A stretch of 64,000 nucleotides of DNA from an uncultured Clostridia bacterium (GCA_947166385.1 CAMVEB010000017.1:4853-68852); one strand, 5' to 3'; counted from the stretch's first letter, positions 3,562 through 52,503 are shown. Numbers and translations: made by a program. The notes: generated from the letters alone by a model not told the origin.

Positions 3562-3637
3562 TTGACACGGTTTCTGCGGTGGAGTAAACTGCTGCAGAAG
3601 GCAAGAGCGTCTTCGGGCATTGCCCGGAGGCGTTTTT
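3562..3637 (+). promoter_or_regulatory. Sigma-A promoter plus ANTAR-like hairpin/terminator leader of the AGCS gene
   Basis: TTGACA 3562-67, 17 nt, TAAACT 3585-90; hairpin AAGGC-AAGAGC-GTCTT 3598-3613 overlaps terminator stem 3607-18/3622-33 followed by T-run to 3637. Confidence 0.65.
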
Positions 3638-3673
3638 CTGTATTCCATTTCATCCGGAAGGCAGGGAAGGAAG

Positions 3674-5206
3674 ATGAAGGGATTTCTCGACATTGTCGCC
3701 GATGTGAACAGTGCTGTAAACGGCGTGGTATGGGGTATTCCCGCCCTGGCGCTGCTGGCGTTCGTCGGTGTCCTGATGACGGTGCTGACCAAAGTGTTCC
3801 AGGTGTCCCATCTTGGCCATTGGCTGAAGAAGACCATCGGTGCGGTATTTAAGGACAAGCACGTTACCACGCACACCCGGGACAGGAGTATTTCCCAGTT
3901 CCAGAGCCTGTGTACCGCGCTGGCCGCTACCGTCGGAACCGGCAACATTGTCGGCGTGGCCGGCGCCATCCTCGTGGGCGGGCCCGGTGCGGTATTCTGG
4001 ATGTGGGTCATGGCTTTCCTGGGGATGATGACCAATTATTCCGAAAATGTGCTCGGCATCTATTACCGCCGGAAAAACTCCAGGGGCGAATGGTCCGGCG
4101 GCGCCATGTATTACCTGCGGGACGGGCTGGGCGCCCAGAAGGGCTGCAAAACCATCGGCAAGGTCCTGGCCGGTTTGTTTGCGGCTTTCTGCCTGATCGC
4201 CTCCTTCGGAATCGGCAACATGACCCAGGTCAACTCGATCTCCGGCAACATGCATGCCGTCTTTGGCGTCCCCGCCTGGGTCACCGGCACCGTCATCACG
4301 ATTCTGGTCGGCCTGGTGGTTGTGGGCGGCCTGAAGCGGATCGCCTCCGTCACGGAGAAAATAGTGCCCTTCATGGTGATCCTCTATATGGTCGGAACCA
4401 TTGCGATCTTCTTTATCAATATTTCGCAGATTGGCGCCGTGTTCGCCTCCATCTTCCGGAGCGCCTTCGGCATGGAAGCTGCCGCCGGCGGCCTCGTCGG
4501 CTACGGCATCAAGCTTGCCATTGAGATGGGGATGAAGCGGGGCGTATTCTCCAATGAAGCCGGTCTTGGCTCCTCCGTCATGGTGCATTCCAACTCCAAT
4601 GTCAGAGAGCCTGTCAAGCAGGGGATGTGGGGAATCTTTGAGGTGTTCGCCGACACGATCGTCGTCTGCACCCTGACCGCTTTTTCTGTGCTTTCCTCCG
4701 GCCTGATCAATCTGGAGACCGGCAAACTTGTCAGCGAAACATATGTCAACAGTGCCGGCGTTTCCCTGACCCTGAGCAAAGCCAATCTTGTTTCCTCCGT
4801 CTTTGACAAGCAGTTTGGCTTTATCGGCTCCGCTTTCATCGCTGTCTCCATCATGCTCTTTGCCTTTTCCACCGTGCTCGGATGGAGCCATTACGGCACG
4901 AAGGCCTGCGAATACCTGCTGGGAGAAAAGCGGACCATTCCCTATCAGATCATCTTTGTGCTGCTGGTGTTCGGCGGCGCTGTCATGGGGGACAACCTGG
5001 CCTGGGATCTGGCCGATACCTTCAACGGCCTGATGATGATTCCGAACCTGATCGGTGTCATCGCGCTTTCCGGAGAGGTGGCAAAAATCACCAGGAACTA
5101 TGTGAACCGGCACATCCGCGGGCTGAAGGAAAAGCCGATCTATTCCGCTTTCCCGGATATCCAGGCCGAGCAGGAAGCCGCGCCGGATACCGGTGCGGAT
5201 GACTGA
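3674..5206 (+). CDS. Alanine/glycine:cation symporter (AGCS) family amino-acid transporter
   Basis: 'TALAATVGTGNIVGVA', 'GGPGAVFWMW', 'GGAMYY', 'RGVFSNEAGLGS', 'FAFSTVLGWSHYG'; start ATG 3674. Confidence 0.93.
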   Translation: MKGFLDIVADVNSAVNGVVWGIPALALLAFVGVLMTVLTKVFQVSHLGHWLKKTIGAVFKDKHVTTHTRDRSISQFQSLCTALAATVGTGNIVGVAGAILVGGPGAVFWMWVMAFLGMMTNYSENVLGIYYRRKNSRGEWSGGAMYYLRDGLGAQKGCKTIGKVLAGLFAAFCLIASFGIGNMTQVNSISGNMHAVFGVPAWVTGTVITILVGLVVVGGLKRIASVTEKIVPFMVILYMVGTIAIFFINISQIGAVFASIFRSAFGMEAAAGGLVGYGIKLAIEMGMKRGVFSNEAGLGSSVMVHSNSNVREPVKQGMWGIFEVFADTIVVCTLTAFSVLSSGLINLETGKLVSETYVNSAGVSLTLSKANLVSSVFDKQFGFIGSAFIAVSIMLFAFSTVLGWSHYGTKACEYLLGEKRTIPYQIIFVLLVFGGAVMGDNLAWDLADTFNGLMMIPNLIGVIALSGEVAKITRNYVNRHIRGLKEKPIYSAFPDIQAEQEAAPDTGADD

Positions 5207-5317
5207 TTCCTCCTGTCAGAAAGATTGACAATCGGCGCAGACTGATTTATATTGATTCCACAAAACACTCTGGCATCCGGAGACCCGGAACCGAAAGCGG
5301 AAGAGGGACATGGAGAT

Positions 5318-7195
5318 ATGAATCATAGCTGTGATCAGCGGAAAATCATAGCCGTCTGTACTTCCTGGGAAGATGTGGAGAATCTGAACCTTGTCCTGAA
5401 TCGGCTGATTCAGGCAACGGAATCCCAGGAATTCCTCCCCTTGTGTATCGCGTTTGACAGAAGCGGGGTGGAATCCAGGGGAGAAGAAAGCATCCGGGAA
5501 TTCATCTCTGCTTTTGACATCCCGAATCTGGCCGGTTTTTTACTCTTCGGCGAAATGATCCGGTCAGACGAAATCAACCACAACCTTATCCGGCTTGCAC
5601 ATCGGAAAAACCTGCCTGTTTTCATGCTGGAACGAGAGTATGAAGGCTGCATCAATATGGCTTTTTCCTACAGGGACGGGTTTGAGACAGTTGCCCGCCA
5701 TCTGGTGGAAGAACACGGATGCGGCGATATTGTCATGGTTGCGGGCATCCAGGGCAACTCCTACTCGGAGGAGCGGATCAGTCTCTGCCGGCAAATTCTG
5801 GAGGAGCACGGGAAAACGCTTCCTCCGGAAAAAGTCATCTACGGAGAGTACTGGGACGAGCCGACCTATAAGGCGCTGGACAGGTATTTTTCCTCTGGCG
5901 GCAGGGTTCCGGAAGCTTTTCTCTGCGCCAATGATGCCATGGCCATCGCCGTCTGCATTTACCTGTCCGAAAGAAACATCCGGGTTCCGGAACAGGTCAG
6001 GGTGGCCGGTTTTGACGGGATCCTCCCCGGAGAAAGCCATGTGCCTGCCATCACCACCGCCAGGCCGGATTTTGCCTTTATGTTCGGAAAAATGATGGAC
6101 CGGATCAAATCCTGGCGTCCGGAGGAAACAGGAAAGACAGAGCTGTGGCCCATTCCCTTTGAGTTCATTCAGCGGGAATCGTGTGGATGCGTGCAGGGAA
6201 ACACTTTCCTTTCCACCAAAAAAAGCGGAGAGCTGAAAATTGACAACCTGATCTATACCCGGCATATCCGGGCCATGGGGAATTTTATCCGCAAAACTCT
6301 CAGCATGAACTCTCTGGACAAGCTGTCCGAGCAGCTTTCAGCCCTCTTCTCCGGATGGCCGAACCCGTATTATTTTGCCGCTGTGCTGGATGAGAATGAC
6401 CGGACCCGGGCCCGATGCGTACTGCACGGCCGGCATGGCCTGTTTGCCTCCGGATCCTCTTTCAGCTGGAAAGATTCTCCGGTCATTGATGAGGTATCGG
6501 TTCGCGGAGATCCTTCCATCCAGATCCTGATGGCCCAGTTGCTGCAGACGGAAGAAGAAACCCTGGGGTATCTTGTTTCCGGCATGCAGACATGGAATCT
6601 GCGTGAACAGGAACGGTTTGAAGAGGAAGCGCTGTTCCTGTCCGCGGCGCTCAACGCGGTCATCAGTAACAGGCGTCTGGCCAAAGCAAACAACGCCATT
6701 CTCTGGATGGCGGAGCATGATTACCTGACAGGATTGTATAACCGCCGGGGATTCCTGCGGGAGCTGGAGCGCAGGCTCCTGCTTCCGGAAAACCGGGAAA
6801 AGACCCTGACCCTGTTTGCCATGGATATGGACCGTCTGAAAACCATCAATGATGTCTATGGGCACCAGGAAGGGGATTATGCCATTAAGAGCCTGGCAAA
6901 AGCCCTGGAGCAGATCATGGAAAAGAAGGGGATCTGTGCCAGGTACGGCGGAGATGAATTCTCTTTCGCGATCCTGGAGGAGGCATCGCATGTCCCGGAT
7001 CCGGAAGCCATCAGGAGCCAGATCGAATCAGCTGCCCGGGAAATCTGCGGTCCGAAACCTTATCTGATTTCCGCCAGCCTCGGCGCTTGTTCCTGCCCGG
7101 TCGGCAGTCATCCGTCCCTGGATCAGATCCTGGCGGACGCAGACAGGGCCCTTTATACGGATAAGAGCATCCGCAAAGCGGAGCAGAAAGAATAG
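5318..7195 (+). CDS. Diguanylate cyclase with N-terminal LacI/periplasmic-binding-type sensor domain
   Basis: 'ARYGGDEF', 'DYLTGLYNRRG', 'DMDRLKTINDVYGH'; N-terminal 'AFLCANDAMAI...VAGFDG' LacI effector fold without HTH; promoter TTGACA 5225 / TATATT 5248. Confidence 0.85.
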   Translation: MNHSCDQRKIIAVCTSWEDVENLNLVLNRLIQATESQEFLPLCIAFDRSGVESRGEESIREFISAFDIPNLAGFLLFGEMIRSDEINHNLIRLAHRKNLPVFMLEREYEGCINMAFSYRDGFETVARHLVEEHGCGDIVMVAGIQGNSYSEERISLCRQILEEHGKTLPPEKVIYGEYWDEPTYKALDRYFSSGGRVPEAFLCANDAMAIAVCIYLSERNIRVPEQVRVAGFDGILPGESHVPAITTARPDFAFMFGKMMDRIKSWRPEETGKTELWPIPFEFIQRESCGCVQGNTFLSTKKSGELKIDNLIYTRHIRAMGNFIRKTLSMNSLDKLSEQLSALFSGWPNPYYFAAVLDENDRTRARCVLHGRHGLFASGSSFSWKDSPVIDEVSVRGDPSIQILMAQLLQTEEETLGYLVSGMQTWNLREQERFEEEALFLSAALNAVISNRRLAKANNAILWMAEHDYLTGLYNRRGFLRELERRLLLPENREKTLTLFAMDMDRLKTINDVYGHQEGDYAIKSLAKALEQIMEKKGICARYGGDEFSFAILEEASHVPDPEAIRSQIESAAREICGPKPYLISASLGACSCPVGSHPSLDQILADADRALYTDKSIRKAEQKE

Positions 7196-16066: not shown

Positions 16067-16071
16067 ATCGA

Positions 16072-16146: not shown

Positions 16147-17754
16147 TTATTTTCCCAGCGTTTTCAAAGCTGCCCGGATGAACCCGACAAATAACGGATG
16201 CGGCTTGTTCGGGCGGCTCTTGAACTCCGGATGGAACTGTACCCCGACAAAAAAGTCTTCTCCCGGAATCTCCACAGTTTCCACCAGGTGTCCGTCCGGT
16301 GACCGCCCGCTGAGCTTCAGTCCGGCCTGTTCCAGTACTTCCCTGTATTCATTGGCAAATTCGTAGCGGTGACGGTGCCGTTCACTGATTTCCGTTTTTC
16401 CGTAGCACCGGGCAATCACGGTTCCCTCTTCCAGTCTGCAGGGATACTTCCCGAGCCGCAGCGTTCCTCCCTTATCAATCTCTTCATGCTGACCCGGCAT
16501 GAAATGAATCACCTGATCCGGAGCGTCGGGATCAAACTCATGAGAGTTAGCGCCGGTCAGTCCGGCCTTGTTCCGGGCAAATTCGATCACGGCGATCTGC
16601 ATCCCCAGGCAAATCCCGAAATACGGAATATGGTGTTCCCGGGCATACCGCGCCGTCTCCACCATGCCTTCGATTCCCCGCCCGCCGAAACCGCCTGGAA
16701 CGATAATCCCCTGGATTCCGGTCATCCGGCTATCGATGTTGTCCGCTGTCAGCGTCACCGAGTCAATCCAGTCGATTTCCACCTTGGCATCCAGCGCGTA
16801 TCCGGCGTGCCGCAGCGCCTCCGCCACGGACAGATAAGCATCATGCAGCTGCACATACTTGCCCACAAGGCCGATTTTCACCGTGTGGTTCTGGTGGCGG
16901 ACCCGCTCCACCATTTCCCGCCATTCCGTCAGGTCTGGTTCCGGGGTTTCCAGTCCCAGTTCCCGGCAGACGATCCCGGACAGATGGGCTTCTTCCAGCA
17001 TCAGCGGCGCGGCGTACAGAATCGGAAGCGTCACATTTTCGATCACGCAGTCGGGTTTCACATTGCAGAAATGGGCAATCTTGTTGAAAATCGACGGATC
17101 CTCGATCTTCTCGTCCGTCCGCAGGACAATGATATTCGGGGTAATCCCCATGCCCTGCATTTCCTTCACGGAATGCTGCGTAGGCTTTGATTTATGTTCC
17201 CCGCTGGCTTTCAGGTACGGCACCAGCGTCACGTGTACATACAGCGCATTTCCGCGGCCGGCTTCCAGCCCGACTTGGCGGATGGCTTCAATAAACGGCT
17301 GGCTTTCAATATCGCCGATCGTTCCGCCGATCTCCGTAATGACCACATCGGCGTCCGTCTTCTCGCCCACCCGGTAAATGAAACGTTTAATCTCATCCGT
17401 CACGTGGGGAATGATCTGTACAGTGGAACCAAGATATCCGCCCTGCCGCTCCTTCTGCAGCACGTTGGAGAATACTTTCCCGGTTGTCAGGTTGGAGTAT
17501 TTGTTCAGATCCTCGTCAATAAAACGTTCATAGTGCCCCAGGTCAAGGTCGGTTTCCGCGCCGTCCTCAGTCACGTAGACTTCCCCGTGCTGGTAGGGGC
17601 TCATGGTTCCGGGATCCACATTAATGTAAGGATCCAGTTTCTGTGCCGCCACCTTCAGACCCCGGGCTTTCAGCAGCCGGCCCAGAGACGCCGCTGTGAT
17701 CCCTTTCCCCAGTCCGGAGACCACGCCCCCGGTCACAAAAATATACTTCGGCAT
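16147..17754 (-). CDS. pyrG: CTP synthase
   Basis: '[18 protein letters not shown]', '[15 protein letters not shown]', 'GICLGMQ', 'VQFHPEF'; start ATG 17754. Confidence 0.97.
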
Positions 17755-17805
17755 ACGGTTCAGCTCCTTCTCTTTTCCGGAAAATCCCGCCTGCATCCCG
17801 GCGGT

Positions 17806-19221
17806 TTACAGATCAATCTCAGTGCTCTCCCCGGATGCGTCCTTCAGCAGGGGGCTAACCCGGTCGAGGAATCGGGTCACCTGCTCCGCACACCGGCCGA
17901 TGTACAGCTTCGGATCCAGGATCTTTTCCATTTCCTCTTCCGAAAGCCCGAATTCCTTTTCCGCCGCCAGCCGCGCCAGCAGGTCGCATTCCCGTCCTTC
18001 GTTCATTCCCGCGGTGGCTTCCATGGAGCAGCGGCGGATGATCTCATGCAGTTCCTGTCGGTTACCGCCCCGTTTGACGGCTTCCATCAGCAGATTTTCG
18101 GTCGCCAGGAACGGCAGGTACTCCCGGATGGTTTTCTCCACGATTTTGTCATTCACCCGCAGTCCGTCCGTCACGTTCTGCGTCAGCCGCAGGATCGCGT
18201 CCGCGCACAGGAACCCTTCCGGCATGGAAATCCGTCGGTTCGCCGAATCGTCCAGCGTCCGCTCCAGCCACTGCGCGGAAGCTGTCAGCGGTGCGTTCAA
18301 GGCATCCGTCATCAGATAGCGGGACAGGGAACAGATCCGTTCGCACCGCATGGGATTCCGCTTATAGGCCATAGCTGAGGAGCCGATCTGGTTTTTCTCA
18401 AAAGGCTCCGCCAGCTGACGGTCATGCTGCAGCAGGCGGATATCATTGGCCATGCGGTATGCGCTCTGGGCGATGGAGGACAAGGCGTTCTGAATGCGGC
18501 TGTCCGTTTTCCGGGGGTAGGTCTGCCCGCACACATCGTAGCAGGCGGAAAACCCGAAAGCGGATGCCAGGGCCCGATTCATCTCATCGATTTTCCCGCC
18601 GTCTCCGTCAAACAGATCCAGAAAACTGGCTTCTGTTCCCGTTGTTCCCCGGCAACCGAGAAAGCAGATATTCTCCAGCACGAAATCAATTTCAGTCAGA
18701 TCCGCCAGAAAATCCTGCATCCAGAGAGTGGCTCGCTTCCCGATGGTCACCGGCTGGGCCGGCTGGTAATGGGTATAACCCAGCGTCGGCATGTCTTTGT
18801 ACTGCGCCGCAAATTTTGCCAGATGGGCCAGTACGTTGAGCAGTTCCCCCCTCAGGTATCGCAGTCCGTCCCGGTACAGGATCAGATCCGCGTTGTCCGT
18901 CACGTAGCAGCTGGTTGCACCAAGATGAATGATTCCCGCCGCGGAAGGCGCTGCCTTCCCATAAGTGTACACATGCGCCATCACGTCGTGACGAACTTCC
19001 TTTTCCCGTTGGCGTACGCATTCATAGTCAATATCTGTCTGATGGGCTTCCAGCTCTGCCACCTGCGCTTCCGTAATCGGAAGCCCGAGCCGGCTCTCCT
19101 CCCTGGCCAGGGCTGTCCAGAGCTTCCGCCAGGTCTGGTACCGGCTGTCCGGCGAGAACAGATGCAGCATATACTCCGAGGCGTATCGGGAAGCCAGAGG
19201 GGATTCATATCGGTCTGTCAT
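17806..19221 (-). CDS. purB: Adenylosuccinate lyase
   Basis: 'RYESPLASRY', 'IIHLGATSCYV', 'GSSAMAYKRNPM' signature; start ATG 19221. Confidence 0.95.
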   Translation of the reverse strand: MTDRYESPLASRYASEYMLHLFSPDSRYQTWRKLWTALAREESRLGLPITEAQVAELEAHQTDIDYECVRQREKEVRHDVMAHVYTYGKAAPSAAGIIHLGATSCYVTDNADLILYRDGLRYLRGELLNVLAHLAKFAAQYKDMPTLGYTHYQPAQPVTIGKRATLWMQDFLADLTEIDFVLENICFLGCRGTTGTEASFLDLFDGDGGKIDEMNRALASAFGFSACYDVCGQTYPRKTDSRIQNALSSIAQSAYRMANDIRLLQHDRQLAEPFEKNQIGSSAMAYKRNPMRCERICSLSRYLMTDALNAPLTASAQWLERTLDDSANRRISMPEGFLCADAILRLTQNVTDGLRVNDKIVEKTIREYLPFLATENLLMEAVKRGGNRQELHEIIRRCSMEATAGMNEGRECDLLARLAAEKEFGLSEEEMEKILDPKLYIGRCAEQVTRFLDRVSPLLKDASGESTEIDL

Positions 19222-19244
19222 TTCTTCATTCCTCCGGATCTTTT

Positions 19245-20522
19245 TCATTCCCTGATAATCATGCTGTCCCGTTCCGCACCGACGGAAATATAGGTGATCG
19301 GACATCCGATGGCCTTCTCGATCATGGTCACATAGGCCCGCGTCGCTTCCGGCAGTTCTTCCCACCGGCGGATTCCGGAAATATCCTGCTGCCATCCCGG
19401 CACCGTCACAGTCACCGGTTCCGCCTGTTTCAGCTCCGTTGGAAACGGAAACTCCTCCGTCTCTTCTCCGTTAATCCGATAGCGTACGCAAACCGGGATT
19501 TCCGTCATATCGCTCAGCACATCCAGCTTGGTCAGGGCTATCTTTGTCGCTCCCTGCATCTCCACGCCATACCGGGTCGCCACCAGGTCAATCGGGCCGA
19601 CCCGCCGGGGACGACCTGTTTTCGCGCCATATTCCTGTCCTGCCTGCCGAAGCCTTTCGGCTTCCTCGCCGAACATCTCGCAGACAAACGGACCTTCTCC
19701 AACGCAGGTGGAGTACGCCTTTACCACCCCGATCACTTCCTCTGCCCGCAGAGAAGGCAGCCCGGCTCCGATCGGTGCGTACGCCGCCAGGGTGTTGGAT
19801 GACGTCGTGTATGGATAGATTCCGTAATCCAGATCCCGCAGTGCGCCCAGCTGCGCTTCAAAAAGCATCCGCTTTCCCTGATCCCTGGCCTTCTTCAGGT
19901 AGCTCCCCGTATCACAGATAAACGGCTTCACCGGTTCGCACCAGTCATGGATCCACGTTTCAAGCATCTCCATGGTATACGGCTCGCTGCCATATACCTT
20001 CGTCAGCGTCAGGTTTTTCCATTCCAGCAGGTCGCGCAGATGTTCCCGTAATTCCGCTGGATGGAACAGTTCCCCGGCCATTACAGTTTTCTTCTGATAC
20101 TTGTCGGAATAGAACGGCGCGATTCCCTGTTTGGTGGAGCCGTACATCTTGTCTGCCAGGCGTTGTTCCTCCAGGGCGTCAAGATCCCGGTGCCACGGCA
20201 GAAGCAGCGATGCCCTGCTGCTGATCTTCAGGTATTCCGGTGTCACGGAAACGCCTTTCGAGGCAACCTCCGCTATTTCTTTCCACAGGTTCTCCGGATC
20301 CAGCGCCACGCCGTTTCCCAGAATGTTCACCACCCCGTCGTGGAAAATTCCGGAGGGCAGCAGGTGAAGGGCGAATTTGCCCTTTTCATTGATCACGGTA
20401 TGTCCCGCGTTGCCGCCGCCCTGATAGCGGATTACAAGATCGTAGTCGGCCGTCAGCAGGTCCACCACCCGGCCCTTTCCTTCGTCCCCCCAGTTAATCC
20501 CGACAATCGCGCAGGTTTTCAT
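19245..20522 (-). CDS. purA: Adenylosuccinate synthetase
   Basis: 'NWGDEGKG', 'YQGGGNAGHT', 'GAKTGRPRRVG', 'TKLDVL'. Confidence 0.96.
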   Translation of the reverse strand: MKTCAIVGINWGDEGKGRVVDLLTADYDLVIRYQGGGNAGHTVINEKGKFALHLLPSGIFHDGVVNILGNGVALDPENLWKEIAEVASKGVSVTPEYLKISSRASLLLPWHRDLDALEEQRLADKMYGSTKQGIAPFYSDKYQKKTVMAGELFHPAELREHLRDLLEWKNLTLTKVYGSEPYTMEMLETWIHDWCEPVKPFICDTGSYLKKARDQGKRMLFEAQLGALRDLDYGIYPYTTSSNTLAAYAPIGAGLPSLRAEEVIGVVKAYSTCVGEGPFVCEMFGEEAERLRQAGQEYGAKTGRPRRVGPIDLVATRYGVEMQGATKIALTKLDVLSDMTEIPVCVRYRINGEETEEFPFPTELKQAEPVTVTVPGWQQDISGIRRWEELPEATRAYVTMIEKAIGCPITYISVGAERDSMIIRE

Positions 20523-21709
20523 TTCGTTTCCTCCAGCAGTTTTCTGATCCGTTCCGCGGCAGTCTTTGTCTCTTCCGGCTTACCGAAGGAAGACAGGCGG
20601 AAATAGCCCTCCCCACAGGCGCCGAAGCCCTCGCCGGGCGTCCCAATCACCTGAATCTCGTTCAGCAGCAGGTCAAAGAAATCCCAGCTCTTCATCCCGT
20701 TCGGGCATGCCATCCAGATATACGGAGCGTTCTTTCCACCCCAGTACCGGATGCCGGTCTGGTCCAGCGCGTCCATCAGAACCTGGGCATTCTGTTTGTA
20801 AATCCGGATATTCTCCTGGATCTGCTCCAGCCCCTCGTCCGAGAAAACCGCGATCCCCGCCTTCTGCAGGAGGTAGGAGATCCCGTTCGTCTTCGTTGTC
20901 CGGTTCCGCACCCACATGGCGTTCAGGTTCATGCCGTCCCGCTCCAGTGCTTTCGGGATCACGGTGTAGCCGAGCCGTGTACCGGTAAATCCGGCCGTTT
21001 TGGACAGCGAGCAGATTTCGATGGCGCAGGTTTCCGCACCGGGAATCTCAAAAATGCTGTGCGGCAGATCCCCTTCAATGAAAGCCTCGTAGGCCGCGTC
21101 AAAAAGAATGACCGCGCCGTGCCGGTTGGCATAGCCTACCCAGCTTTGCAGCTGTTCCCGGCTGTAAACCGCGCCGGTGGGGTTGTTCGGGGAACACAGG
21201 TAGATCAGGTCCGCCGCTGTGTCATCCCCTGGCAGGGGCAGGAAGTCATTCTCCGGTCCGGCGTTCAGGAAGAAGGTCTTCCGCCCGGCCATCACGCTGG
21301 CATCCACATACGCCGGATAGGCGGGCTGCGTGATCAGCGCCGGGGAACCCGCGTCAAACAGATCCAGGATATCCCCCAGTTCATCGCTTGCTCCGCTGGA
21401 AACAAAGATTTCCTCCGGATCCGGATGCACGCCTCTCCGGCTGTAGTAGCCCGCAACGGCGGCCCGGAATTCCGGGATCCCGCATTCCGGCGTATACCCA
21501 TGAAAAGTTTCTTCCTTCGCCTGGTCGTCTGCCGCGCTGTGCAGCGCCTGGATTGCTGCCCGGCACAGCGGCAGCGAAACGTCCCCGATTCCCAGGCGGT
21601 ACAGAGGCTTTTCCGGATGTTCGGCCCGGTACGCGGCCACTTTCTGTGATATCCCGAAGAACAGGTAGGATTCCTTCAGGTTCCTGTAATTTCCATTCGG
21701 TTTCAGCAT
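20519..21709 (-). CDS. dapL: LL-diaminopimelate aminotransferase
   Basis: 'YLFFGI', 'LGIGDV', 'YPAYVD', 'CSPNNPTG', 'DAAYEAFI', 'SLSKTAGFTGTR', 'GTPGEGFG'. Confidence 0.9.
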   Translation of the reverse strand: MLKPNGNYRNLKESYLFFGISQKVAAYRAEHPEKPLYRLGIGDVSLPLCRAAIQALHSAADDQAKEETFHGYTPECGIPEFRAAVAGYYSRRGVHPDPEEIFVSSGASDELGDILDLFDAGSPALITQPAYPAYVDASVMAGRKTFFLNAGPENDFLPLPGDDTAADLIYLCSPNNPTGAVYSREQLQSWVGYANRHGAVILFDAAYEAFIEGDLPHSIFEIPGAETCAIEICSLSKTAGFTGTRLGYTVIPKALERDGMNLNAMWVRNRTTKTNGISYLLQKAGIAVFSDEGLEQIQENIRIYKQNAQVLMDALDQTGIRYWGGKNAPYIWMACPNGMKSWDFFDLLLNEIQVIGTPGEGFGACGEGYFRLSSFGKPEETKTAAERIRKLLEETK

Positions 21710-21720
21710 GTTGTCCTCCC

Positions 21721-23589
21721 TTATTCCACCGTGACGCTTTTCGCCAGGTTTCTCGGCTTGTCCACATCCAGCCCGCGGTTAACGCTGGTATAGTATCCAA
21801 GCAGCTGCAGCGGCACCACGGCCAGCGACGCCATGAAGTGTTCGTCCGTCTTTGGAATATACACCGTGAAGTTTACCGAATCCTCCAGGTCAAAATTGCC
21901 GTTTGTCGTGATACCCAGCAGATAGCCTCCCCGGGACTTGCATTCCATCATGTTGGAAACGGTTTTTTCATACAGGGCCTTCTGCGTCAGCACACCGATG
22001 ATCAGCGTATTGTTTTCCACCAGACTGATCGTTCCGTGTTTCAGTTCCCCGGCGGCGTAGGCTTCCGAATGAATGTAGCTGATCTCCTTCATCTTCAGGC
22101 TGCCTTCCAGGCTGATGGCATAGTCCAGCCCCCGGCCGATGAAGAAAATATCCCGGGTATTGGCCATCTTGGAGGAAAACCACTGCAGTCGTTCCTTCTC
22201 CTCCAGGATCCGGCTGATTTTTTCCGGAATCAGGGCCAGTTCCCCCAGCAGCCGCTCCGCTTCCTCCGCTGTCATTTTCTCCCGGATCCGGGCCATATGG
22301 ATTGCCAGCACATCCGAAGCAATCAGCTGGGCGCTGTAGGCTTTGGTCGTCGCCACGGCAATTTCCGGCCCCGCCAGGGTATACAGTACATGATCCGCTT
22401 CCCGCGCGATTGTGGATCCGATGACGTTCACGATAGCAAGTGTCTGGGCGCCCCGTTCCTTGGCAACCCGCAGTGCCGCAAGGCTGTCCGCCGTCTCCCC
22501 GGACTGAGAAATGATGATCACCAGGGTTCCCCCGCTGATTGGAATGCTGCGGTAGCGGAATTCCGAGGCCAGCTCCACCCGAACCGGGATTCCGGCCAGG
22601 TCCTCCATCACGTACTGAGCCGCCATGCCGACATGCCACGCGGACCCGCAGGCCACAATGACGATCTGTTCAATCGAACGGATCGCGTCCTCTGTCAGTC
22701 CCGTCTGGGACAGGTCGACCCATCCGTCCTTCACGATGCTGTTCAGTGTATCCCGCACAGCTCCCGGCTGCTCATGGATCTCTTTCAGCATGAAATGCTC
22801 AAATCCGCCCTTTTCCGCCGCTTCCGCGTCCCAGGTAATCTCCGTCAGCGGCATCTCAACCTCGTCCCCGTTCAGGTCATAGAACAGAGCCTTCCCCGGT
22901 GAAACCCGGGCCACCTGCAGGTTATCAATGTAATAGACCTGCCGGGTATATTTCAGAATGGCCGGTACGTCGGATGCCAGGTAGGCTTCCCCGTCCTCCG
23001 CCCCGATAATCAGCGGAGAATCTTTTCTCGCCGCGAAGATCTCATCCGGATAGTCCTTGAACATAAGCGCTAGGGCATAACTTCCCCGAATTCGCACCAT
23101 CGTCCGGGTAATGGCGTCCACCGGGCCGATTTTGTATTTTTTGTAGTAGTAGTCCACCAGCTTCACAGCCACTTCCGTGTCGGTGTCGCTGTAGAAGACG
23201 TATCCGTGCCGCAGCAGTTTTTCCTTCAACTCCGTATAGTTCTCAATGATCCCGTTGTGCACGCCCACCACATCGGATTCCACGGCACCGCTTCCGGATC
23301 CGGAGCAGTTCCCGCTGACATGGGGATGCGCGTTGACAATGCTGGGATCCCCGTGGGTAGCCCACCGGGTATGTCCGATCCCGCAGCATCCCGCCAGGGC
23401 CCGGCCCTGGTCGGTCTTGTCTGCCAGATGATACAGTTTCCCCGTCGCCTTGACAACCTCCGCCAGTGCTGCCCCGTTGCGTACAGCCAGCCCGGCGGAA
23501 TCATACCCCCGGTACTCCAGCCGGGAAAGGCTGTCCAGCAGAATGGGCGCCGCCTGCCGGCGCCCTGTGTATCCGACAATTCCGCACAT
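21721..23589 (-). CDS. glmS: Glutamine-fructose-6-phosphate transaminase
   Basis: 'MCGIVGY', 'EYRGYDSAG', 'GHTRWATHG', 'SQSGETAD', 'EAYAAGELKHG', 'DVDKPRNLAKSVTVE'; start ATG 23589. Confidence 0.97.
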   Translation of the reverse strand: MCGIVGYTGRRQAAPILLDSLSRLEYRGYDSAGLAVRNGAALAEVVKATGKLYHLADKTDQGRALAGCCGIGHTRWATHGDPSIVNAHPHVSGNCSGSGSGAVESDVVGVHNGIIENYTELKEKLLRHGYVFYSDTDTEVAVKLVDYYYKKYKIGPVDAITRTMVRIRGSYALALMFKDYPDEIFAARKDSPLIIGAEDGEAYLASDVPAILKYTRQVYYIDNLQVARVSPGKALFYDLNGDEVEMPLTEITWDAEAAEKGGFEHFMLKEIHEQPGAVRDTLNSIVKDGWVDLSQTGLTEDAIRSIEQIVIVACGSAWHVGMAAQYVMEDLAGIPVRVELASEFRYRSIPISGGTLVIIISQSGETADSLAALRVAKERGAQTLAIVNVIGSTIAREADHVLYTLAGPEIAVATTKAYSAQLIASDVLAIHMARIREKMTAEEAERLLGELALIPEKISRILEEKERLQWFSSKMANTRDIFFIGRGLDYAISLEGSLKMKEISYIHSEAYAAGELKHGTISLVENNTLIIGVLTQKALYEKTVSNMMECKSRGGYLLGITTNGNFDLEDSVNFTVYIPKTDEHFMASLAVVPLQLLGYYTSVNRGLDVDKPRNLAKSVTVE

Positions 23590-23613: not shown

Positions 23614-23696
23614 AAAAAACAGGTGAATGTGCCGTCCTGCCTGACCTCATTGCCTGTCCGCGAAGGATTTTATCATGAATGATTCTTTCTTGTCAA
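23614..23696 (-). promoter_or_regulatory. Promoter plus ANTAR-like hairpin/terminator leader of the glmS operon
   Basis: TTGACA (23691-96), 18 nt, TAAAAT (23667-72); GGC-AATGAG-GTC (23643-54) overlapping an imperfect terminator ACAGG..AATG...CATT..CCTGT-TTTTT. Confidence 0.7.
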
Positions 23697-23731
23697 TACA
23701 TTATAATACAACAATACATTCTGAAGACAAC

Positions 23732-23774: not shown

Positions 23775-25481
23775 TCAGTCGGATTGCAGTGCGTCGTACC
23801 CTTCCTCTCCTGTACGGACGCGTACCACATTCTCCACATCGGTAATAAAAATCTTGCCGTCTCCGATATGTCCCGTATGCAGGACATTCCTGGCCGTCTC
23901 GATCACCTCGCACACCGGCACCTTGCTCACCACGATATCCACCTGCACTTTCGGCAGCAGCGTCACTTCCACCGGTGTGCCGCGGTAGTACTCGGGCTTT
24001 CCTTTCTGTGCACCGTATCCCATGACGTTGGTAACAGTCATACCGGTAATTCCGATCCGGTTCATCGCTGTCTTCAGGCTCTCCAGACTGGCCGGACGAC
24101 AGATGATCTGAACCCGGGTATACACCGGTTCATCCGGCGCCTTCTCCTTCGCTTTCCGGACTGGTGTTTCCGCTGCGGCCGCAGCCGGAGCAGCTGTCGG
24201 AATAACCTCCCCGCCGCCGACGCTTTCTTCCGGAAGCATCGCGATTCCGGCGTACGCTGTCGGAAGTCCGTGTTCGCTGCGGTCCAGACCCATCACTTCA
24301 TCCGCGGAATCAGCCCGCAGACCGATTGCCTTTTTGATCAGCAGGAATACGACCGTAATAATCACTGCCGTCCAGGCGATCACCGTCAGCACCCCGAGGC
24401 ACTGAACTCCCAGGAATTTGAATCCGCCGCCGTAGAAAACACCTTTCATCGTGGTTTGTCCGGTAGCAAAGAAACCGGTCAGGATCGTGCCCAGCGCGCC
24501 GCATACACCGTGAACGGAAATTGCGCCGACCGGATCGTCGATTTTCACCACCCTGTCGAAAAAGCTCACAGCCAGCACCACGGCAAACCCGCAGACCACA
24601 CCGATCACGGCTGCTCCGAAGGGATCCACAGCGTCGCATCCCGCTGTGATGCCCACCAGCCCCGCCAGCGCTGCGTTGAAGGTCATGGAAACATCCGGCT
24701 TGCCGTACCTGATCCAGGTAAAGAGCATGGTGACCAGCGTCGCCAGGGCCGCCGACAGGTTCGTATTGAAGAACACCAGGCTGGCGGAGCCGATCAGCTC
24801 GTCGCTGTCCATCCCCACGGTGGAAGCGCCGTTGAAGCCGAACCAGCAGAACCAGAGGATGAATACCCCCAGCGCGGCAATGGACAGGTTGTGTCCCAGG
24901 ATGGCCCGGGGCTTTCCGTCCTTTCCGTATTTACCGATCCGGGGCCCCAGGATCTTCGCTCCGACCAGGGCGCAAACACCGCCGACCATGTGTACCGCCG
25001 TGGATCCGGCAAAATCATGGAATCCCATTTCCGCCAGCCAGCCGCCGCCCCAGATCCAGTGTCCGCTGACCGGATAAATAAACAGGGAAATCGCCGCGGA
25101 ATAGATGCAGTATGCTGAGAATTTGGTTCGCTCCGCCATCGATCCGGATACAATCGTTGCCGACGTCGCACAGAAAACCGTCTGGAAAATGGCAAACGCC
25201 CACAGCGGAACCCCCGCTGGCAGCACGCTTTCGTATTCCTTCATGATGAAAGGATCAATCCATCCGAAGACCGCCGTGCCTGTCCCGAACATAATCCCGA
25301 ATCCGAACAACCAGTACAGCGGGGTGCCGATGCAGAAATCCATCAGGTTCTTCATCAGGATATTACCGGTATTCTTGGCCCGGGTAAATCCGGCTTCGCA
25401 CATGGCAAACCCGGCCTGCATGAAGAAAACCAGCGCTGCGCCCAGCAGCACCCAGATTGTGTTCGCGGGAGAGTACATCAT
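23775..25481 (-). CDS. amtB: Ammonium transporter fused to a C-terminal PII (GlnK-like) domain
   Basis: Amt motifs 'FMQAGFAM', 'DFAGSTAVH', 'LWFCWFGFN', 'DDPVGAISVHG'; Ala/Pro linker; PII 'GITGMTV', 'YYRG', 'TGHIGDGKIF', 'RVRTGE'. Confidence 0.93.
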   Translation of the reverse strand: MMYSPANTIWVLLGAALVFFMQAGFAMCEAGFTRAKNTGNILMKNLMDFCIGTPLYWLFGFGIMFGTGTAVFGWIDPFIMKEYESVLPAGVPLWAFAIFQTVFCATSATIVSGSMAERTKFSAYCIYSAAISLFIYPVSGHWIWGGGWLAEMGFHDFAGSTAVHMVGGVCALVGAKILGPRIGKYGKDGKPRAILGHNLSIAALGVFILWFCWFGFNGASTVGMDSDELIGSASLVFFNTNLSAALATLVTMLFTWIRYGKPDVSMTFNAALAGLVGITAGCDAVDPFGAAVIGVVCGFAVVLAVSFFDRVVKIDDPVGAISVHGVCGALGTILTGFFATGQTTMKGVFYGGGFKFLGVQCLGVLTVIAWTAVIITVVFLLIKKAIGLRADSADEVMGLDRSEHGLPTAYAGIAMLPEESVGGGEVIPTAAPAAAAAETPVRKAKEKAPDEPVYTRVQIICRPASLESLKTAMNRIGITGMTVTNVMGYGAQKGKPEYYRGTPVEVTLLPKVQVDIVVSKVPVCEVIETARNVLHTGHIGDGKIFITDVENVVRVRTGEEGYDALQSD

Positions 25482-25514: not shown

Positions 25515-25596
25515 AAAAAAGGCGCCGGGTGCTTCCACGCACCCTTGCGCCTTGTTGGATGGTCGTTATTGTATACAGTATCCATCTTCCTGTCAA
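25515..25596 (-). promoter_or_regulatory. Promoter plus ANTAR-like hairpin/terminator leader of amtB-PII
   Basis: TTGACA (25591-96), 17 nt, TACAAT (25568-73); GCGC-AAGGGT-GCGT (25537-50) overlapping terminator GGCGC..GGGTGC-GTGGAA-GCACCC.GCGCC-TTTTTT. Confidence 0.8.
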
Positions 25597-25643
25597 GTGA
25601 AAAACAACTGAAATACAAAAGATCAAAAATCTTTCTCTTTTCG

Positions 25644-27050: not shown

Positions 27051-27053
27051 TGC

Positions 27054-31383: not shown

Positions 31384-31920
31384 CTATCGGTTCTTTTGCT
31401 TTTCCTCTTGGATGATGCTGGCAGCGTACTCAGCCATTTTGATGCTGTGGTCCATCGCCTGTTTCTGAAGCAGGTGATGCGCCTCCGGTTCTGTAAGATG
31501 CAGCTGTTTCATCAGGATTTCCTTGGCCTGCTCCACCAGTTCCTTCTCCGCGCCGGCCCGACGGGGCATCTGCCGCCGGTGAAGCTGGTTCAGCATTTCA
31601 ATCGCCCCGGCGATGGTCTGTCCCGTAGTCGGAACCGGCAGCCGGAAAACTTCCGGCGATTCGCAGTTCTCCAGGATGGCCGGTTTGGCGATCCAGAGGA
31701 TCTGTACCCGTTCGCCGTAGTCCCAGACCAGCTCCTCCGGCTTGCAGTCAGGGATCTGTCCCAGATAGATCAGGATGCTGTCCTCGCTTTCAGACAGTGC
31801 TCTCCTCAGGCTGCTTCCCGATGTACAGCAGCGGTATACGGAATAACCGGAGGAAGCAAGCAGCCGGGCTATCTGATCGCGGGTCGTTTCCGATATGCCG
31901 GCGATGATCATTCGCGCCAC
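31384..31920 (-). CDS. ANTAR-domain antitermination regulator with degenerate receiver domain (NitR-like)
   Basis: C-terminal 'LVEQAKEILMKQLHLTEPEAHHLLQKQAMDHSIKMAEYAASII' matches ANTAR (IxxAKxxLMxxxxxxExxAxxxLxxxSM); position glnA-[this gene]-gltB-gltD as for clostridial nitR; GTG start with GGAGG RBS. Confidence 0.85.
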   Translation of the reverse strand: MARMIIAGISETTRDQIARLLASSGYSVYRCCTSGSSLRRALSESEDSILIYLGQIPDCKPEELVWDYGERVQILWIAKPAILENCESPEVFRLPVPTTGQTIAGAIEMLNQLHRRQMPRRAGAEKELVEQAKEILMKQLHLTEPEAHHLLQKQAMDHSIKMAEYAASIIQEEKQKNR

Positions 31921-31965: not shown

Positions 31966-33297
31966 TCAGTACATCACGATATACCGTTCAATCTCCCAGC
32001 GGCTGACATGGGTGCGATACGCATCCCATTCCTTTTCCTTGCCTTCCACATACTGCCCCAGCACATGCTCGCCCAGTGCCTTGCAGATCACATCGTCTGC
32101 CTTCAGGCATTCCACCGCGTCCTTCAGGGTGCCGGGCAGGGAGCGGATGCCTTTCGCTTCCCGCGTTTCCGCGTCCATGGCAAAGATGTTTTCCGTAATC
32201 TCGTCCGGGGGCGTCAGTCCTTTCCGGATGCCGTCCAGTCCTGCTGCCAGGCACACTGCCATGTTCAGGTAGGGGTTGCAGCTGGGATCCGGGCACCGGA
32301 GTTCCACGCGCGTTCCCATCCCGCGGGCAGCGGGAATCCGGATCAGAGCGGACCGGTTGCTCGCGCTCCAGGCCAGGTAGCACGGCGCCTCATATCCGGG
32401 AACCAAGCGCTTGTAGCTGTTCACCAGCGGGTTGGTCACCGCCGCCATGCCGCGGATATGCTCCAGAATCCCGGCGATGAAGGAATATGCTTCCTTACTC
32501 AGTCCCCGGCTGTCAGCGGGATCGGCAAACACGTTCTTTCCGTCCTTGAACAGGCTCATGTTTGTGTGCATGCCGCTGCCGTTGATTCCGAATACAGGCT
32601 TCGGCATGAATGTCGCGTGCAGTCCATTCTTCTGGGCCAGGGTCTTGACCGCCAGCTTGAACGTCATGATATTGTCCGCCGCTGTCAGCGCGTCGGCATA
32701 TTTGAAGTCGATCTCATGCTGTCCTGCTGCCACTTCATGGTGGCTGGCCTCGATTTCGAATCCCATCTGTTCCAGCGCCAGGCAGATCTCACGCCGGGTG
32801 CTCTCGCCATGGTCCAGCGGCCCCAGGTCAAAGTATCCGGCTTCGTCGGATGTCGCGGTCGTGGGTTTTCCCTGCTCATCCGTCTGGAAGAGGAAGAATT
32901 CCATTTCCGGCCCGACATTGAAGGAATATCCCATGTCCGCCGCTTCCTGCAGTACCTTCTTCAGAACCCCGCGGGGATCTCCTGCGAAGGGCGTCCCATC
33001 CGGGTTGTAAACGTCGCAGATCAGCCGGGCCACTTTCCCGTGCTGCGGCCGCCAGGGCAGAATCGCGAAGGTATCCAGATCCGGCCGCAGGTACTGATCA
33101 CTCTCGTTGATGCGCACAAATCCTTCGATAGAGCTGCCGTCAATCATAATTTCATTGTTGACAGCCTTTTCGATCTGGCTCGCCGTGATTGCCACGTTCT
33201 TCAGCTGGCCGAAAATATCGGTAAACTGCATGCGGATAAACTCCACGTCGCCTTCCCGAACCATCCGGATAATGTCCTCTTTCGTGTACTTGCTCAT
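31966..33297 (-). CDS. glnA: Type I glutamine synthetase
   Basis: '[14 protein letters not shown]', 'DGSSIEGF', '[10 protein letters not shown]', '[15 protein letters not shown]', '[13 protein letters not shown]', 'ELRCPD'; start ATG 33297. Confidence 0.97.
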
Positions 33298-33345: not shown

Positions 33346-33427
33346 AAAAACAGGCAAGTCCAGCCATGATCCATGGCTCCCTTGCCTTGTATGCGGGGAT
33401 CATATCACCCGTTTTTTTCGCTGTCAA
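33346..33427 (-). promoter_or_regulatory. Promoter plus ANTAR-like hairpin/terminator leader of the glnA operon
   Basis: TTGACA (33422-27), 17 nt, TATGAT (33399-404); GGC-AAGGGA-GCC (33375-86) overlapping terminator AGGCAAG..AGCCATG-GAT-CATGGCT..CTTGCCT-GTTTTT. Confidence 0.85.
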
Positions 33428-33491
33428 GCGTTTCTTCGCGTTTTGAATTGTTTTCCCTTTGTATTCACTGCGGCATCCTCCAGCTTGCTGC

Positions 33492-33571
33492 TTGACAAGC
33501 CCTGACCGGAATGATACCATACCTGCCAACAAGGCAAGGGTGTCCTGTGATGGGGATATCCTTCCTTTTTT
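33492..33571 (+). promoter_or_regulatory. Promoter plus ANTAR-like hairpin/terminator leader of asnB-guaA
   Basis: TTGACA 33492-97, 17 nt, TACCAT 33515-20; GGC-AAGGGT-GTC 33533-44 overlapping terminator stem 33536-45/33554-63 (plus AAGG/CCTT) and T-run to 33571. Confidence 0.8.
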
Positions 33572-33607: not shown

Positions 33608-35188
33608 ATGTGTTCTATCTTCGGTCTGACCAGTGCCAGGGTACCCCGGGAGCTGATGGAAACCTGCTTTAACCGCACCTTGTCCCGTGGGCCGGATATG
33701 AGCCGTCTGGAGGACATTCCCGGCGGAGTCCTCGGTTTCCACCGGCTGGCCATCATGGGTCTGAACGAGCGGGGCATGCAGCCCTTTCATCTCGGCGGCG
33801 ACAGGGTGGTCTGCAACGGGGAGCTGTACGGTTTCCGTCCCTTGCGCGAGCGTCTGATGGAAACATATGAGATCAAAGGGGAATCCGATTGTGAAATCCT
33901 TCTCCCTCTGTATCATGAGTACGGGGTGGAGATGTTCAAAACGCTGGATGCCGAGTTTGCGCTGATCCTCTATGACAGCGAGCGGAGCAAAGTGATTGCC
34001 GCCCGGGATCCGATCGGCATCCGCCCGTTGTATTACGGCCGGCTGGAGGATGGGGAATGGGCCTTCGCCAGCGAACCGAAGAACCTCATGGATCTTTGTG
34101 ATACGATTCTCCCCTTCCCGCCCGGGCATTACTGGATGGACGGGGAATTCGTTCAGTATGCGGATCCCGCTTATGTAGGATATTTCACCATGAAAACCGA
34201 GCCGGATGTCTGTGCCAAGCTCCGCCGCCTGCTGATGGACGGGGTTGAAAAAAGGCTGGACGCGGACGCGCCGGTCGGTTTCCTGCTCTCCGGCGGCCTG
34301 GATTCGTCCCTCGTCTGTGCCATCGCCCAGCGGTTTCTGCCCCATCCGATCCGCACTTTTGCCATCGGCATGGATCTCGATGCGATTGACCTGAAGTATG
34401 CCCGCATGGTCGCGGATTATATCGGCAGCGAGCATACTGAAGTCATCATCAGTGAAAAGGATGTCCTCGAAGCGCTCCCGACGGTGGTGGAGCTCCTCGC
34501 CACCTGGGATATCACCACCATCCGCGCTTCCATCGGTATGTACCTGGTCTGCAAATGGATCCATGAACATACGGATATCCGCGTCCTGCTGACCGGGGAA
34601 ATCTCCGATGAGCTCTTTGGGTATAAATATACGGATTTCGCCCCATCCGCCGCCGCCTTCCAGGAGGAAGCGGAAAAACGCATCCGGGAGCTCCACGTTT
34701 ACGATGTTCTCCGGGCGGATCGCTGCATCTCCGTCAACAGTCTGGAAGCCCGTGTCCCCTTCGGTGATCTGAAGTTTGTCCGCTATGCCATGAGCATTGA
34801 TCCCGAGTTGAAAATGAACAACCACAATATGGGCAAGTATCTGATCCGTAAGGCCTTCGCCGAGGATCACATCCTTCCGGATGAAATCCTCTGGCGCCAG
34901 AAGGCCGCTTTCTCCGATGCGGTGGGCCATTCCATGGTAAACGATCTGAAGAACTTTGCCGAAAGAACCTATACCGACAAGGAATTTGCCGAAAAATCGG
35001 CGAAATATGATTACTGCCCTCCTTTCACCAAGGAGAGCCTGCTGTACCGGGAGCTGTTTGAGCAGTTTTATCCCGGTCAGTCGCATATGATTCCCGATTT
35101 CTGGATGCCAAATAAAACTTGGCCCGGTTGTGATGTGGATGATCCTTCCGCCAGAGTCCTGGCAAACTACGGGGACAGCGGCAAATAA
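33608..35188 (+). CDS. asnB: Asparagine synthetase B (glutamine-hydrolysing)
   Basis: 'MCSIFG', 'RGPD', 'FHRLAIMG', 'CNGELY', '[11 protein letters not shown]', 'LLSGGLDSS', '[10 protein letters not shown]', 'LEARVPF'. Confidence 0.95.
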
Positions 35189-35216
35189 TCATCCGGGCCG
35201 GAAAACGGAGGCAAAA

Positions 35217-36761
<1,545 letters not shown>

Positions 36762-51179: not shown

Positions 51180-51346
51180 TTTCACCTCATCGTTCTGTTT
51201 CCGCTTCCATAACGATACATCTTTCATCGGGCAAAAGCAAGCAGGACGCTGATGGAAATACCGGCCCAGTAGCCAAAGCCTGTCATGTATGGTAAAATCA
51301 CAAGCGGCGCGAACCGACAATCTCCATGCAGGAAAGGAATGAGAGC

Positions 51347-52006: not shown

Positions 52007-52075
52007 GCATCCGTTTGCTGTGACAGCATGGCCGGTCGTCCCCTTTCATTCTGTATCTGGTTTGAGATACCTTTT

Positions 52076-52107
52076 CGAGAGGAACTTTTTTCGAGAGGAA
52101 CTTTTTT
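52076..52107. repeat. Perfect 16-nt tandem duplication
   Basis: CGAGAGGAACTTTTTT at 52076-91 and 52092-107. Confidence 0.85.
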
Positions 52108-52419
52108 CAGTTCTGCTCATTCCTGCTTCTGCCTTATTTTTGCACAAACAGTGTCCAGCCGTTCCTGCACCGCCTCCATGTCATCGAATGGACAAATAAG
52201 AACGCCGGCTGCTTGAGCCGGTGTTTGCCTTCTCAGCTTGAGAACTGTCCCCCACGGTTCCGTGATGATAGTATAGCACAAATTTGGATGGGACACAAGT
52301 TAAAATTTTAATTTTTTGTTAATTTTGTTGTTGTAATGATTGTAAATTGATTGTCATCTAAATACGGTAACGCTTGGAACGCACAGAACGCACAAAGCTG
52401 CATTTTTCCTGTTTCCGCC

Positions 52420-52503
52420 TTCCATATCCGATCCGCTTGTGATACGATGATGCCGCAAACTGGCAAGGGCGTCGGTGCACGGTTGGCATCGGCGTATTTT
52501 TTT
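52420..52503 (+). promoter_or_regulatory. Promoter plus ANTAR-like hairpin/terminator leader of purC
   Basis: TTCCAT 52420-25, 17 nt, TG-n-TACGAT 52443-48; ACTGGC-AAGGGC-GTCGGT 52459-76 overlapping terminator stem 52469-78/52486-95 and T7 at 52497-503. Confidence 0.75.

Follow-up and report, generated by a model that had tools for sequence, protein, structure and literature searches.

A candidate ANTAR-type antitermination regulon of single-hexaloop leaders that would link nitrogen assimilation with the spending of glutamine and aspartate nitrogen in an uncultured Clostridia bacterium

We analysed a 64-kb stretch of DNA from an uncultured Clostridia bacterium (contig C17, positions 4853–68852; hereafter the window). 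Six genes or operons in it are preceded by leaders that share one design, a small RNA hairpin with a six-nucleotide loop (hexaloop) overlapping an intrinsic terminator, and a gene for an ANTAR-domain protein lies beside the glutamine synthetase gene glnA. The shared leader design is confirmed here, and the sequence comparisons described below support an ANTAR-type antitermination regulon that would join nitrogen assimilation to the use of glutamine and aspartate nitrogen. The source genome (4.33 Mb in 96 contigs, 54% G+C, 94.6% complete) has its closest public relatives among uncultured rumen 'Clostridia/Clostridiales' metagenome-assembled genomes of the RUG and RGIG series. Protein-coding genes were called by hexamer scoring and identified from Pfam and NCBIfam profile matches. 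The genes concerned are, in window coordinates:

3674–5206, plus strand: AGCS, alanine/glycine:cation symporter (PF01235, TIGR00835)
16147–23589, minus strand: glmS-dapL-purA-purB-pyrG operon (Pfam; DapL by TIGR03542)
23775–25481, minus strand: ammonium transporter (amtB) fused to a P-II domain (PF00909, PF00543)
25644–31370, minus strand: gltB and gltD, glutamate synthase (Pfam)
31384–31920, minus strand: ANTAR regulator with a pseudo-receiver domain, 178 residues (PF03861, AlphaFold/Foldseek, orthologue alignment)
31966–33297, minus strand: glnA, type I glutamine synthetase (PF00120, PF03951, TIGR00653)
33608–36761, plus strand: asnB (glutamine-dependent asparagine synthase) and guaA (GMP synthase) (Pfam)
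52520–53233, plus strand: purC (SAICAR synthetase), second paralogue (PF01259)

DapL scored 466 bits against TIGR03542, for which the cut-off is 365. As an earlier reading of this DNA (the sequence-only reading) had proposed, the ANTAR gene occupies the position known from glnA-nitR-glt operons, between glnA and gltB with all of these genes on the minus strand. The operons also contain the cell-wall, lysine, purine, pyrimidine and asparagine nitrogen sinks that it had named, in the form of glmS, dapL, purA, purB, pyrG, guaA and asnB.

That reading had further claimed six promoters, each followed by a hexaloop hairpin. All six hairpins were present in the sequence as quoted. The promoters of glnA (33427), amtB (25596), glmS (23696) and asnB (33492) were recovered by a consensus scan at exactly the claimed positions and that of AGCS (3562) was recognised by eye; for purC, the consensus scan of the upstream region returned no promoter, leaving an extended −10 element only. 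The elements of the six leaders are:

3562–3590, plus strand: AGCS promoter TTGACA-17-TAAACT (read by eye from the sequence)
3597–3614, plus strand: AGCS hexaloop hairpin GAAGGC-AAGAGC-GUCUUC, with A at loop position 4 (sequence, RNAfold)
3607–3637, plus strand: AGCS terminator and T-run, its 5′ arm being the 3′ half of the hairpin (terminator finder, RNAfold)
23667–23696, minus strand: glmS promoter TTGACA-18-TAAAAT (consensus scan, 11/12)
23643–23654, minus strand: glmS hexaloop hairpin GGC-AAUGAG-GUC (sequence, RNAfold)
23614–23657, minus strand: glmS terminator, imperfect, and T6 (RNAfold, −11.6 kcal/mol)
25568–25596, minus strand: amtB promoter TTGACA-17-TACAAT (consensus scan, 11/12)
25537–25550, minus strand: amtB hexaloop hairpin GCGC-AAGGGU-GCGU (sequence)
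25515–25553, minus strand: amtB terminator and T6 (terminator hairpin −22.6 kcal/mol; RNAfold of the whole leader −29.7 kcal/mol)
33399–33427, minus strand: glnA promoter TTGACA-17-TATGAT (consensus scan, 11/12)
33375–33386, minus strand: glnA hexaloop hairpin GGC-AAGGGA-GCC (sequence)
33346–33387, minus strand: glnA terminator and T5 (terminator finder, RNAfold; −21.8 kcal/mol)
33492–33520, plus strand: asnB promoter TTGACA-17-TACCAT (consensus scan, 10/12)
33533–33544, plus strand: asnB hexaloop hairpin GGC-AAGGGU-GUC (sequence; best covariance-model match in the genome)
33533–33571, plus strand: asnB terminator and T6 (terminator finder, RNAfold)
52440–52448, plus strand: purC possible extended −10 element TGATACGAT, no consensus −35 box (by eye)
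52459–52476, plus strand: purC hexaloop hairpin ACUGGC-AAGGGC-GUCGGU (sequence, RNAfold)
52469–52503, plus strand: purC terminator and T7 (RNAfold)

In all six leaders a hairpin of 3–6 bp presents a hexaloop closed by a C-G pair, and its bases double as the 5′ arm of the intrinsic terminator. There is one hexaloop hairpin per leader, and in five of the six (purC being the exception) it lies 6–17 nt downstream of a good −10 box. RNAfold recruited 8–13 bases of each hairpin into terminator pairing, the overlap in asnB and amtB being read by eye off the predicted fold. Folded alone, the hairpins of glnA, glmS, purC and AGCS, from which the energies were taken, were worth −5.5 to 0 kcal/mol, compared with −12 to −30 kcal/mol for the terminators (the −29 kcal/mol of AGCS is for the whole leader and takes in an additional helix outside the terminator stem). 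The terminator finder overlooked the terminators of glmS and purC. Because the hairpin bases pair into the far more stable terminator, the two folds are mutually exclusive, as had been claimed, and the energy difference suggests that termination is the default state. The consensus of the site bound by the Enterococcus faecalis ANTAR protein EutV, AGCAANGRRGCUY, likewise overlaps the 5′ arms of terminators (PMC3369931). Its conserved loop residues A1 and G4, which the sequence-only reading had named, are present in five of the six window leaders; AGCS departs from them. The glmS loop AAUGAG and the purF leader AGCAAGGGAGCU, which lies outside the window, fit the consensus exactly, and loop position 6 is frequently U or C.

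A profile search identified 31384–31920 as the sole ANTAR gene of the genome (PF03861, 62.9 bits; cut-off 27.3). Its AlphaFold model (predicted local distance difference test, pLDDT, 86) shows a receiver-like domain of the (βα)5 type that a long helix connects to an ANTAR domain of three helices. The best Foldseek matches of this model were EutV–RNA (6WW6), Rv1626 and AmiR, and it also matched CheY-like folds. Strand 3 is followed by an invariant Gly54, so that the phospho-acceptor Asp is absent; in addition, Pfam Response_reg did not match the protein, and we therefore regard it as a pseudo-receiver of the AmiR kind. In EutV, the flipped-out G4 is held by Arg142, Lys149, Glu160 and Tyr164 (PMC8934654). 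These residues align with K126, K133, E144 and H148 of the window protein, of which the last three are invariant among homologues while position 126 is K or R. No kinase gene was found near the ANTAR gene and no AmiC- or NasS-like partner gene adjoining it. Two cysteines of the pseudo-receiver domain, C32 and C59, are invariant across homologues as well.

Upstream regions of orthologues, taken from as many as 41 genus members, were scored for a hexaloop hairpin followed by a T-run. Both were present in 28/29 orthologues of amtB, in 26 of the 30 glnA orthologues (with the stem variants GAC/GUC and GGC/GUC), in 11/12 for asnB, 19/30 for glmS and 15/18 for purF; the remaining three purF genes lie directly behind gltD within the glnA-ANTAR-glt operon. 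The purC leader is lineage-specific, as only 1–2 of 30 orthologues carried the element. AGCS orthologues had it in 18 of 29 cases, with the loop AAGGGC (hairpin GAC-AAGGGC-GUC) or AAAGGC, and several others (L180, L185 and L202–L204) had a glycine-riboswitch-like leader CTCTCAGGCAAAAGGAC in place of the ANTAR-type hairpin; among members of the genus, the AGCS gene has exchanged one regulatory RNA for another.

Among 80 distinct instances of the element, the closing C-G pair and loop A2 were invariant and A1 was kept in ∼90%; G4 was constant, but it was also a selection criterion. Loop position 6, the stems and the terminators varied. Stem pair 2 was G-U in 42 instances, G-C in 24 and A-U in 14, and stem pair 3 was G-C in 52 and C-G in 24, statistics that are biased because the instances were picked for at least 3 bp. 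The frequent G-U pairs (42/80) and the strictly sense-strand orientation favour an RNA over a DNA element, and on the same two grounds a DNA operator was ruled out as its identity. A CsrA-type GGA loop was rejected since GGA is not conserved among the loops, and a glutamine riboswitch, a T-box and a glmS ribozyme were rejected for want of Rfam matches. No Rfam family matched within the window, and the Rfam covariance models found neither a glmS ribozyme (RF00234) nor a purine riboswitch (RF00167) in the genome.

The association with the ANTAR gene extends beyond the genus. In a survey of 60 genomes of the order that were at least 90% complete, the ANTAR gene was present in 35. In four families other than that of the source genome (represented by G027, G035, G060 and G066), matches to a covariance model of the hairpin lay 2–7 kb from the ANTAR gene; five such matches were observed, compared with an estimated ∼0.6 expected. 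They are the same hairpin-terminator leaders and head glt-glnA-ANTAR operons and glnN. The adjacency of glnA and the ANTAR gene is thus kept in five families, and the operon runs on into pyrG-guaA in G060 and into purA-dapF in G027. When the joint occurrence of the ANTAR gene and the leader was tested, one genome agreed by lacking both and one was an exception. The agreeing genome is G057, a genome of the same family (99% complete) without an ANTAR gene, whose glnA has a promoter and no attenuator; the exception, G025, is discussed below.

Within the source genome, the regulon had been described as having six members. The six leaders are there, but six is an undercount, and one of them (purC) is the lineage-specific case. 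Further leaders of the same design lie outside the window, together with two looser cases:

C20:44689: gdhA leader (covariance model)
C20, near 10627: leader of purF-orf-carA-carB
C19: leader of a gene for an 858-residue PPDK_N protein
C60: leader of an ABC_sub_bind transporter
C44: looser case, a ThDP enzyme with an amino-acid ABC transporter
C12: looser case, a small membrane protein

With these, the candidate regulon comprises at least 10 leaders. Judged by the genes that follow them, it would span nearly all glutamine amidotransferases (glmS, asnB, purF, guaA, pyrG, carA and gltB) and would include the aspartate-nitrogen steps purC and purA/B.

The sequence-only reading had suggested building a covariance model and scanning the genome and its relatives, and this was carried out with a model of 22 nt made from the 80 distinct instances. 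In the genome-wide ranking asnB, glnA and amtB came out on top, with E-values of 0.009–0.1. Among the 26 best matches, six were leader matches with an overlapping terminator (asnB, glnA, amtB, AGCS, purC and gdhA), and none of the matches in coding sequence among these 26 had one. At 22 nt the model is too short to reach genome-wide significance alone, in this genome or in the order, and it was used only together with context.

The leaders differ from the classical ANTAR substrate, which consists of two hexaloop hairpins, P1 and P2, 5–12 nt apart (PMC3369931), both of which are required for antitermination by EutV (PMC3369931, PMC8934654). More recently, the minimal ANTAR site was redefined as a single hexaloop, to which an ANTAR dimer binds while G4 is flipped out, and the same authors asked if targets with just one hexaloop occur in nature and which genes these would regulate (Walshe et al. 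2022, PMC8934654). In 100 leaders the hairpin started a median of 12 nt past the −10 box. An upstream second hairpin was seen in 12 of the 100 and discarded, as each was the extended −10 element itself (GTGATAGGATAC); a second hexaloop downstream was found in just five and was not conserved. As in the minimal site, the leaders combine a hexaloop carrying G4 with an ANTAR protein that is predicted to have the G4-contact residues. Because they form a large conserved collection whose lone hexaloop is positioned to govern termination, they make the question of natural single-hexaloop targets directly testable.

We propose, with a probability of roughly 0.75, that the leaders are protein-dependent attenuators in which termination would be the default and an ANTAR dimer would capture the nascent hexaloop and block the 5′ arm of the terminator. 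One ANTAR antiterminator, encoded beside glnA, probably reads all of them. The transcript would begin a few bases ahead of the mini-hairpin, whose hexaloop (consensus C-AAGGGN-G) is the candidate recognition site. Unaided, the RNA would adopt the more stable terminator and polymerase would halt before the gene. An active dimer of the pseudo-receiver ANTAR protein would instead bind the hexaloop upon its emergence from polymerase and sequester bases needed by the terminator 5′ arm, resulting in read-through. A single regulator could in this manner couple the genes that take up and assimilate ammonium (amtB-PII, glnA, gltBD, gdhA) to those whose enzymes pass nitrogen on (glmS, dapL, asnB, purF, purC, purA/B, guaA, pyrG and carAB). 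We infer the binding of the ANTAR protein to these hairpins from the observed anatomy and conservation of the leaders, their linkage to the ANTAR gene, and the predicted fold and contact residues of the protein. The clostridial regulator NitR induces glutamine synthetase and glutamate synthase (GS/GOGAT) upon nitrogen limitation (Stutz 2007, as cited in PMC6316151), and by analogy read-through would be expected under nitrogen or glutamine scarcity. Since the receiver is not phosphorylatable and glnA and the ANTAR gene adjoin in five families, we infer that the signal arrives via a partner (GS or P-II) or a ligand and not by phosphorylation.

Several observations weigh against this proposal. 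The leaders lack the dual hexaloop of the classical definition (Ramesh 2012). The AGCS loop, AAGAGC, has A at position 4, and A1 is replaced by G in ∼10 amtB leaders. The stem statistics carry the selection bias described above. The glnA gene of G025 has a hairpin-terminator leader upstream (L258, G025:C13, GAGAAC-AAAGGC-GUUCUU) in a genome, 93% complete, in which the ANTAR gene was not found; the case reflects either a gap in the assembly or a genuine exception. The presence of gdhA alongside GS/GOGAT leaves the sign of the nitrogen signal uncertain. Finally, a loose motif, a C-G-closed RA.G.. hexaloop on a terminator arm, was found in 8/424 cases, compared with 2–9/424 in permuted-loop controls.

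This last result bears on the simplest alternative, namely that short GC-rich hairpins on ordinary terminators resemble one another by chance; an occurrence of the hairpin at a similar rate in unrelated leaders had been named as grounds for giving up the regulon. The bare word GGCAANGNNG indeed occurs 14 times in the window, where 14.1 occurrences were expected, the covariance-model E-values are modest, and noise swamped both an initial loose scan for a hairpin plus T-run and a scan based on folding. A tight motif (GCAAKRRNGY with a third base pair, leader position and T-run) gave 11 matches compared with 1–5 in six permuted-loop controls. Because the bare and loose motifs are unenriched, significance rests on context, conservation and gene function and not on the word. 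What decides the matter is comparison: dozens of genomes, some of other families among them, keep the element ahead of the same genes, the downstream genes are functionally coherent, and the element always lies on the sense strand directly after a promoter. We consider chance effectively refuted by these comparisons and give it hardly any weight.

Two other explanations accept that the leaders are real. The hairpin could be a genuine antiterminator element read by another RNA-binding factor, with the ANTAR protein having other targets or none of these. The G025 leader would fit such an arrangement, as would the presence of a single hairpin where EutV requires two. However, G025 is merely 93% complete and a single hexaloop suffices for ANTAR binding (PMC8934654); moreover, the loops match the ANTAR consensus exactly, the leaders adjoin ANTAR genes in five families and the RNA-contact residues of the protein are conserved, and we therefore think it unlikely that another factor reads the hairpins. 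Equally improbable, in our estimation, is co-regulation mainly at the DNA level by a transcription factor, with the terminators acting as constitutive dampers or RNA 5′-end stabilisers that have no regulator of their own. What speaks for it are direct repeats, TGTWTT-N5-TGTWTT, at 33449–33465, ∼25600–25625 (minus strand) and ∼23697–23725 (minus strand) of the window, which overlap the −35 boxes of glnA/asnB, amtB and glmS or immediately precede them and are conserved in the genus. The repeat recurs at two further promoters of the source genome (G000 C2:40985 and C60:2745), and TGTWTT boxes are found at glnA of G057, which has neither ANTAR gene nor attenuator. Regulation by these boxes leaves unexplained why the loops are conserved amid variable stems and terminators, and AGCS, purC, gdhA and purF carry the hairpin without a clear TGTWTT box. 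Both layers can also coexist, as GnfM and GnfR do in Geobacter (PMC2995071), and the repeats are probably the site of a DNA-binding nitrogen regulator that acts in parallel to ANTAR-dependent attenuation.

A wider form of the antitermination proposal, which we put a little short of even odds, is that single-hexaloop attenuators without P1/P2 serve across the order in gut and rumen Clostridia to switch nitrogen distribution globally. A single ANTAR protein of the pseudo-receiver type, under the control of GS or P-II and not of phosphorylation, would set the levels of assimilation and of nearly all biosynthetic enzymes that transfer glutamine or aspartate nitrogen, in replacement of the glmS ribozyme, purine and glycine riboswitches and TnrA/GlnR-type control.

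ANTAR nitrogen regulons as a kind are already known. A prediction of 2012 already covered GS, GOGAT, Amt/P-II and asparagine synthase, with GS-ANTAR pairs noted in Clostridia (PMC3369931). Several ANTAR-type leaders per genome, ahead of these same genes, were listed for Desulfotomaculum acetoxidans, Mahella australiensis and Alkaliphilus metalliredigens (Ramesh 2012, Table S2), a set found by a dual-hairpin model, unlike the single-hairpin leaders here. The supposition that this scope had no prior description therefore stands for the wider set of sink genes and not for nitrogen regulons in general: Table S2 contains no glucosamine, amidophosphoribosyl, carbamoyl, purine, CTP or GMP synthase or glutamate dehydrogenase genes (PMC3369931), glutamine does not appear at all in an antiterminator review from 2025, nor does an ANTAR regulon linked to GS, and our literature searches found no regulon of this scope. 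On these grounds we count as new the scope (nitrogen sinks in addition to assimilation), together with an attenuator architecture built on one hexaloop and the substitution for the usual riboswitches.

Of the related systems, EutV/EutW of the E. faecalis eut operon shares the AGCAANGRRGCUY mini-hairpin overlapping the terminator 5′ arm and a regulator in which a receiver-like domain is combined with a coiled coil and an ANTAR domain, with the G4-contact residues kept here. It differs in having P1 and P2, whereas here a single hairpin stands at the 5′ end of the transcript, and in controlling ethanolamine catabolism instead of nitrogen assimilation and biosynthesis; in our protein the receiver lacks the phospho-acceptor Asp, no kinase is nearby, and Tyr164 is replaced by His. 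The glnA-nitR-gltAB cluster of Clostridium saccharobutylicum (Stutz 2007, as cited in PMC6316151) has the same gene order as glnA-ANTAR-gltB-gltD, and a role in GS/GOGAT induction is presumed here as for NitR. In contrast to that cluster, the element here also precedes the separate operons amtB, asnB-guaA, glmS-dapL-purAB-pyrG, purF-carAB, gdhA, purC and AGCS. In AmiR/AmiC and NasT/NasS, a pseudo- or non-phosphorylated receiver is likewise fused to an ANTAR domain and sequestration is the likely control; in contrast to these pairs, the regulator here has no AmiC- or NasS-like neighbour, and GS or P-II are guesses for the partner. Geobacter GnfK/GnfR likewise places ANTAR antitermination of nitrogen-assimilation and nitrogen-fixation genes above a DNA-level layer, but GnfR is a phosphorylated two-component regulator of a proteobacterium with a regulon centred on nitrogen fixation (PMC2995071). 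Experimental studies exist of both NitR and GnfR.

If the proposal is true, uncultured rumen Clostridia would follow a simple logic of nitrogen economy in which assimilation is raised together with the enzymes that compete for scarce glutamine or aspartate nitrogen. It would also be a case of regulatory replacement, with an ANTAR leader where other Firmicutes have a glmS ribozyme or purine or glycine riboswitches, and the ∼100 aligned natural variants would provide material for deriving the rules of ANTAR–RNA recognition.

Some minor features of the leaders and their genes were also recorded. Two complete hairpin-terminator units stand in tandem at ∼9876 and ∼9949 (plus strand) of L235 in G027, ahead of the type III glutamine synthetase gene glnN, and at ∼2225 and ∼2073 (minus strand) of L236 in G035; with a spacing of ∼70–150 nt they are serial attenuators in form. 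Five ANTAR-less genomes of the order (G057, G084, G025, G030 and G036) all lack an amtB match. Two purC paralogues occur in 32 of the 41 genus genomes searched. The one in the window belongs to a group of 65–78% identity and has the hairpin leader in this lineage only, and the other paralogue of the source genome is at G000 C5:63124–63801. Lastly, the gene 46 nt past AGCS (5252–7195, plus strand), whose product joins a periplasmic-binding-like domain to a GGDEF diguanylate cyclase, may share a transcript with AGCS. Binding of c-di-GMP is reported for the ANTAR protein NasT (PMC10783516), and a similar link may exist here.

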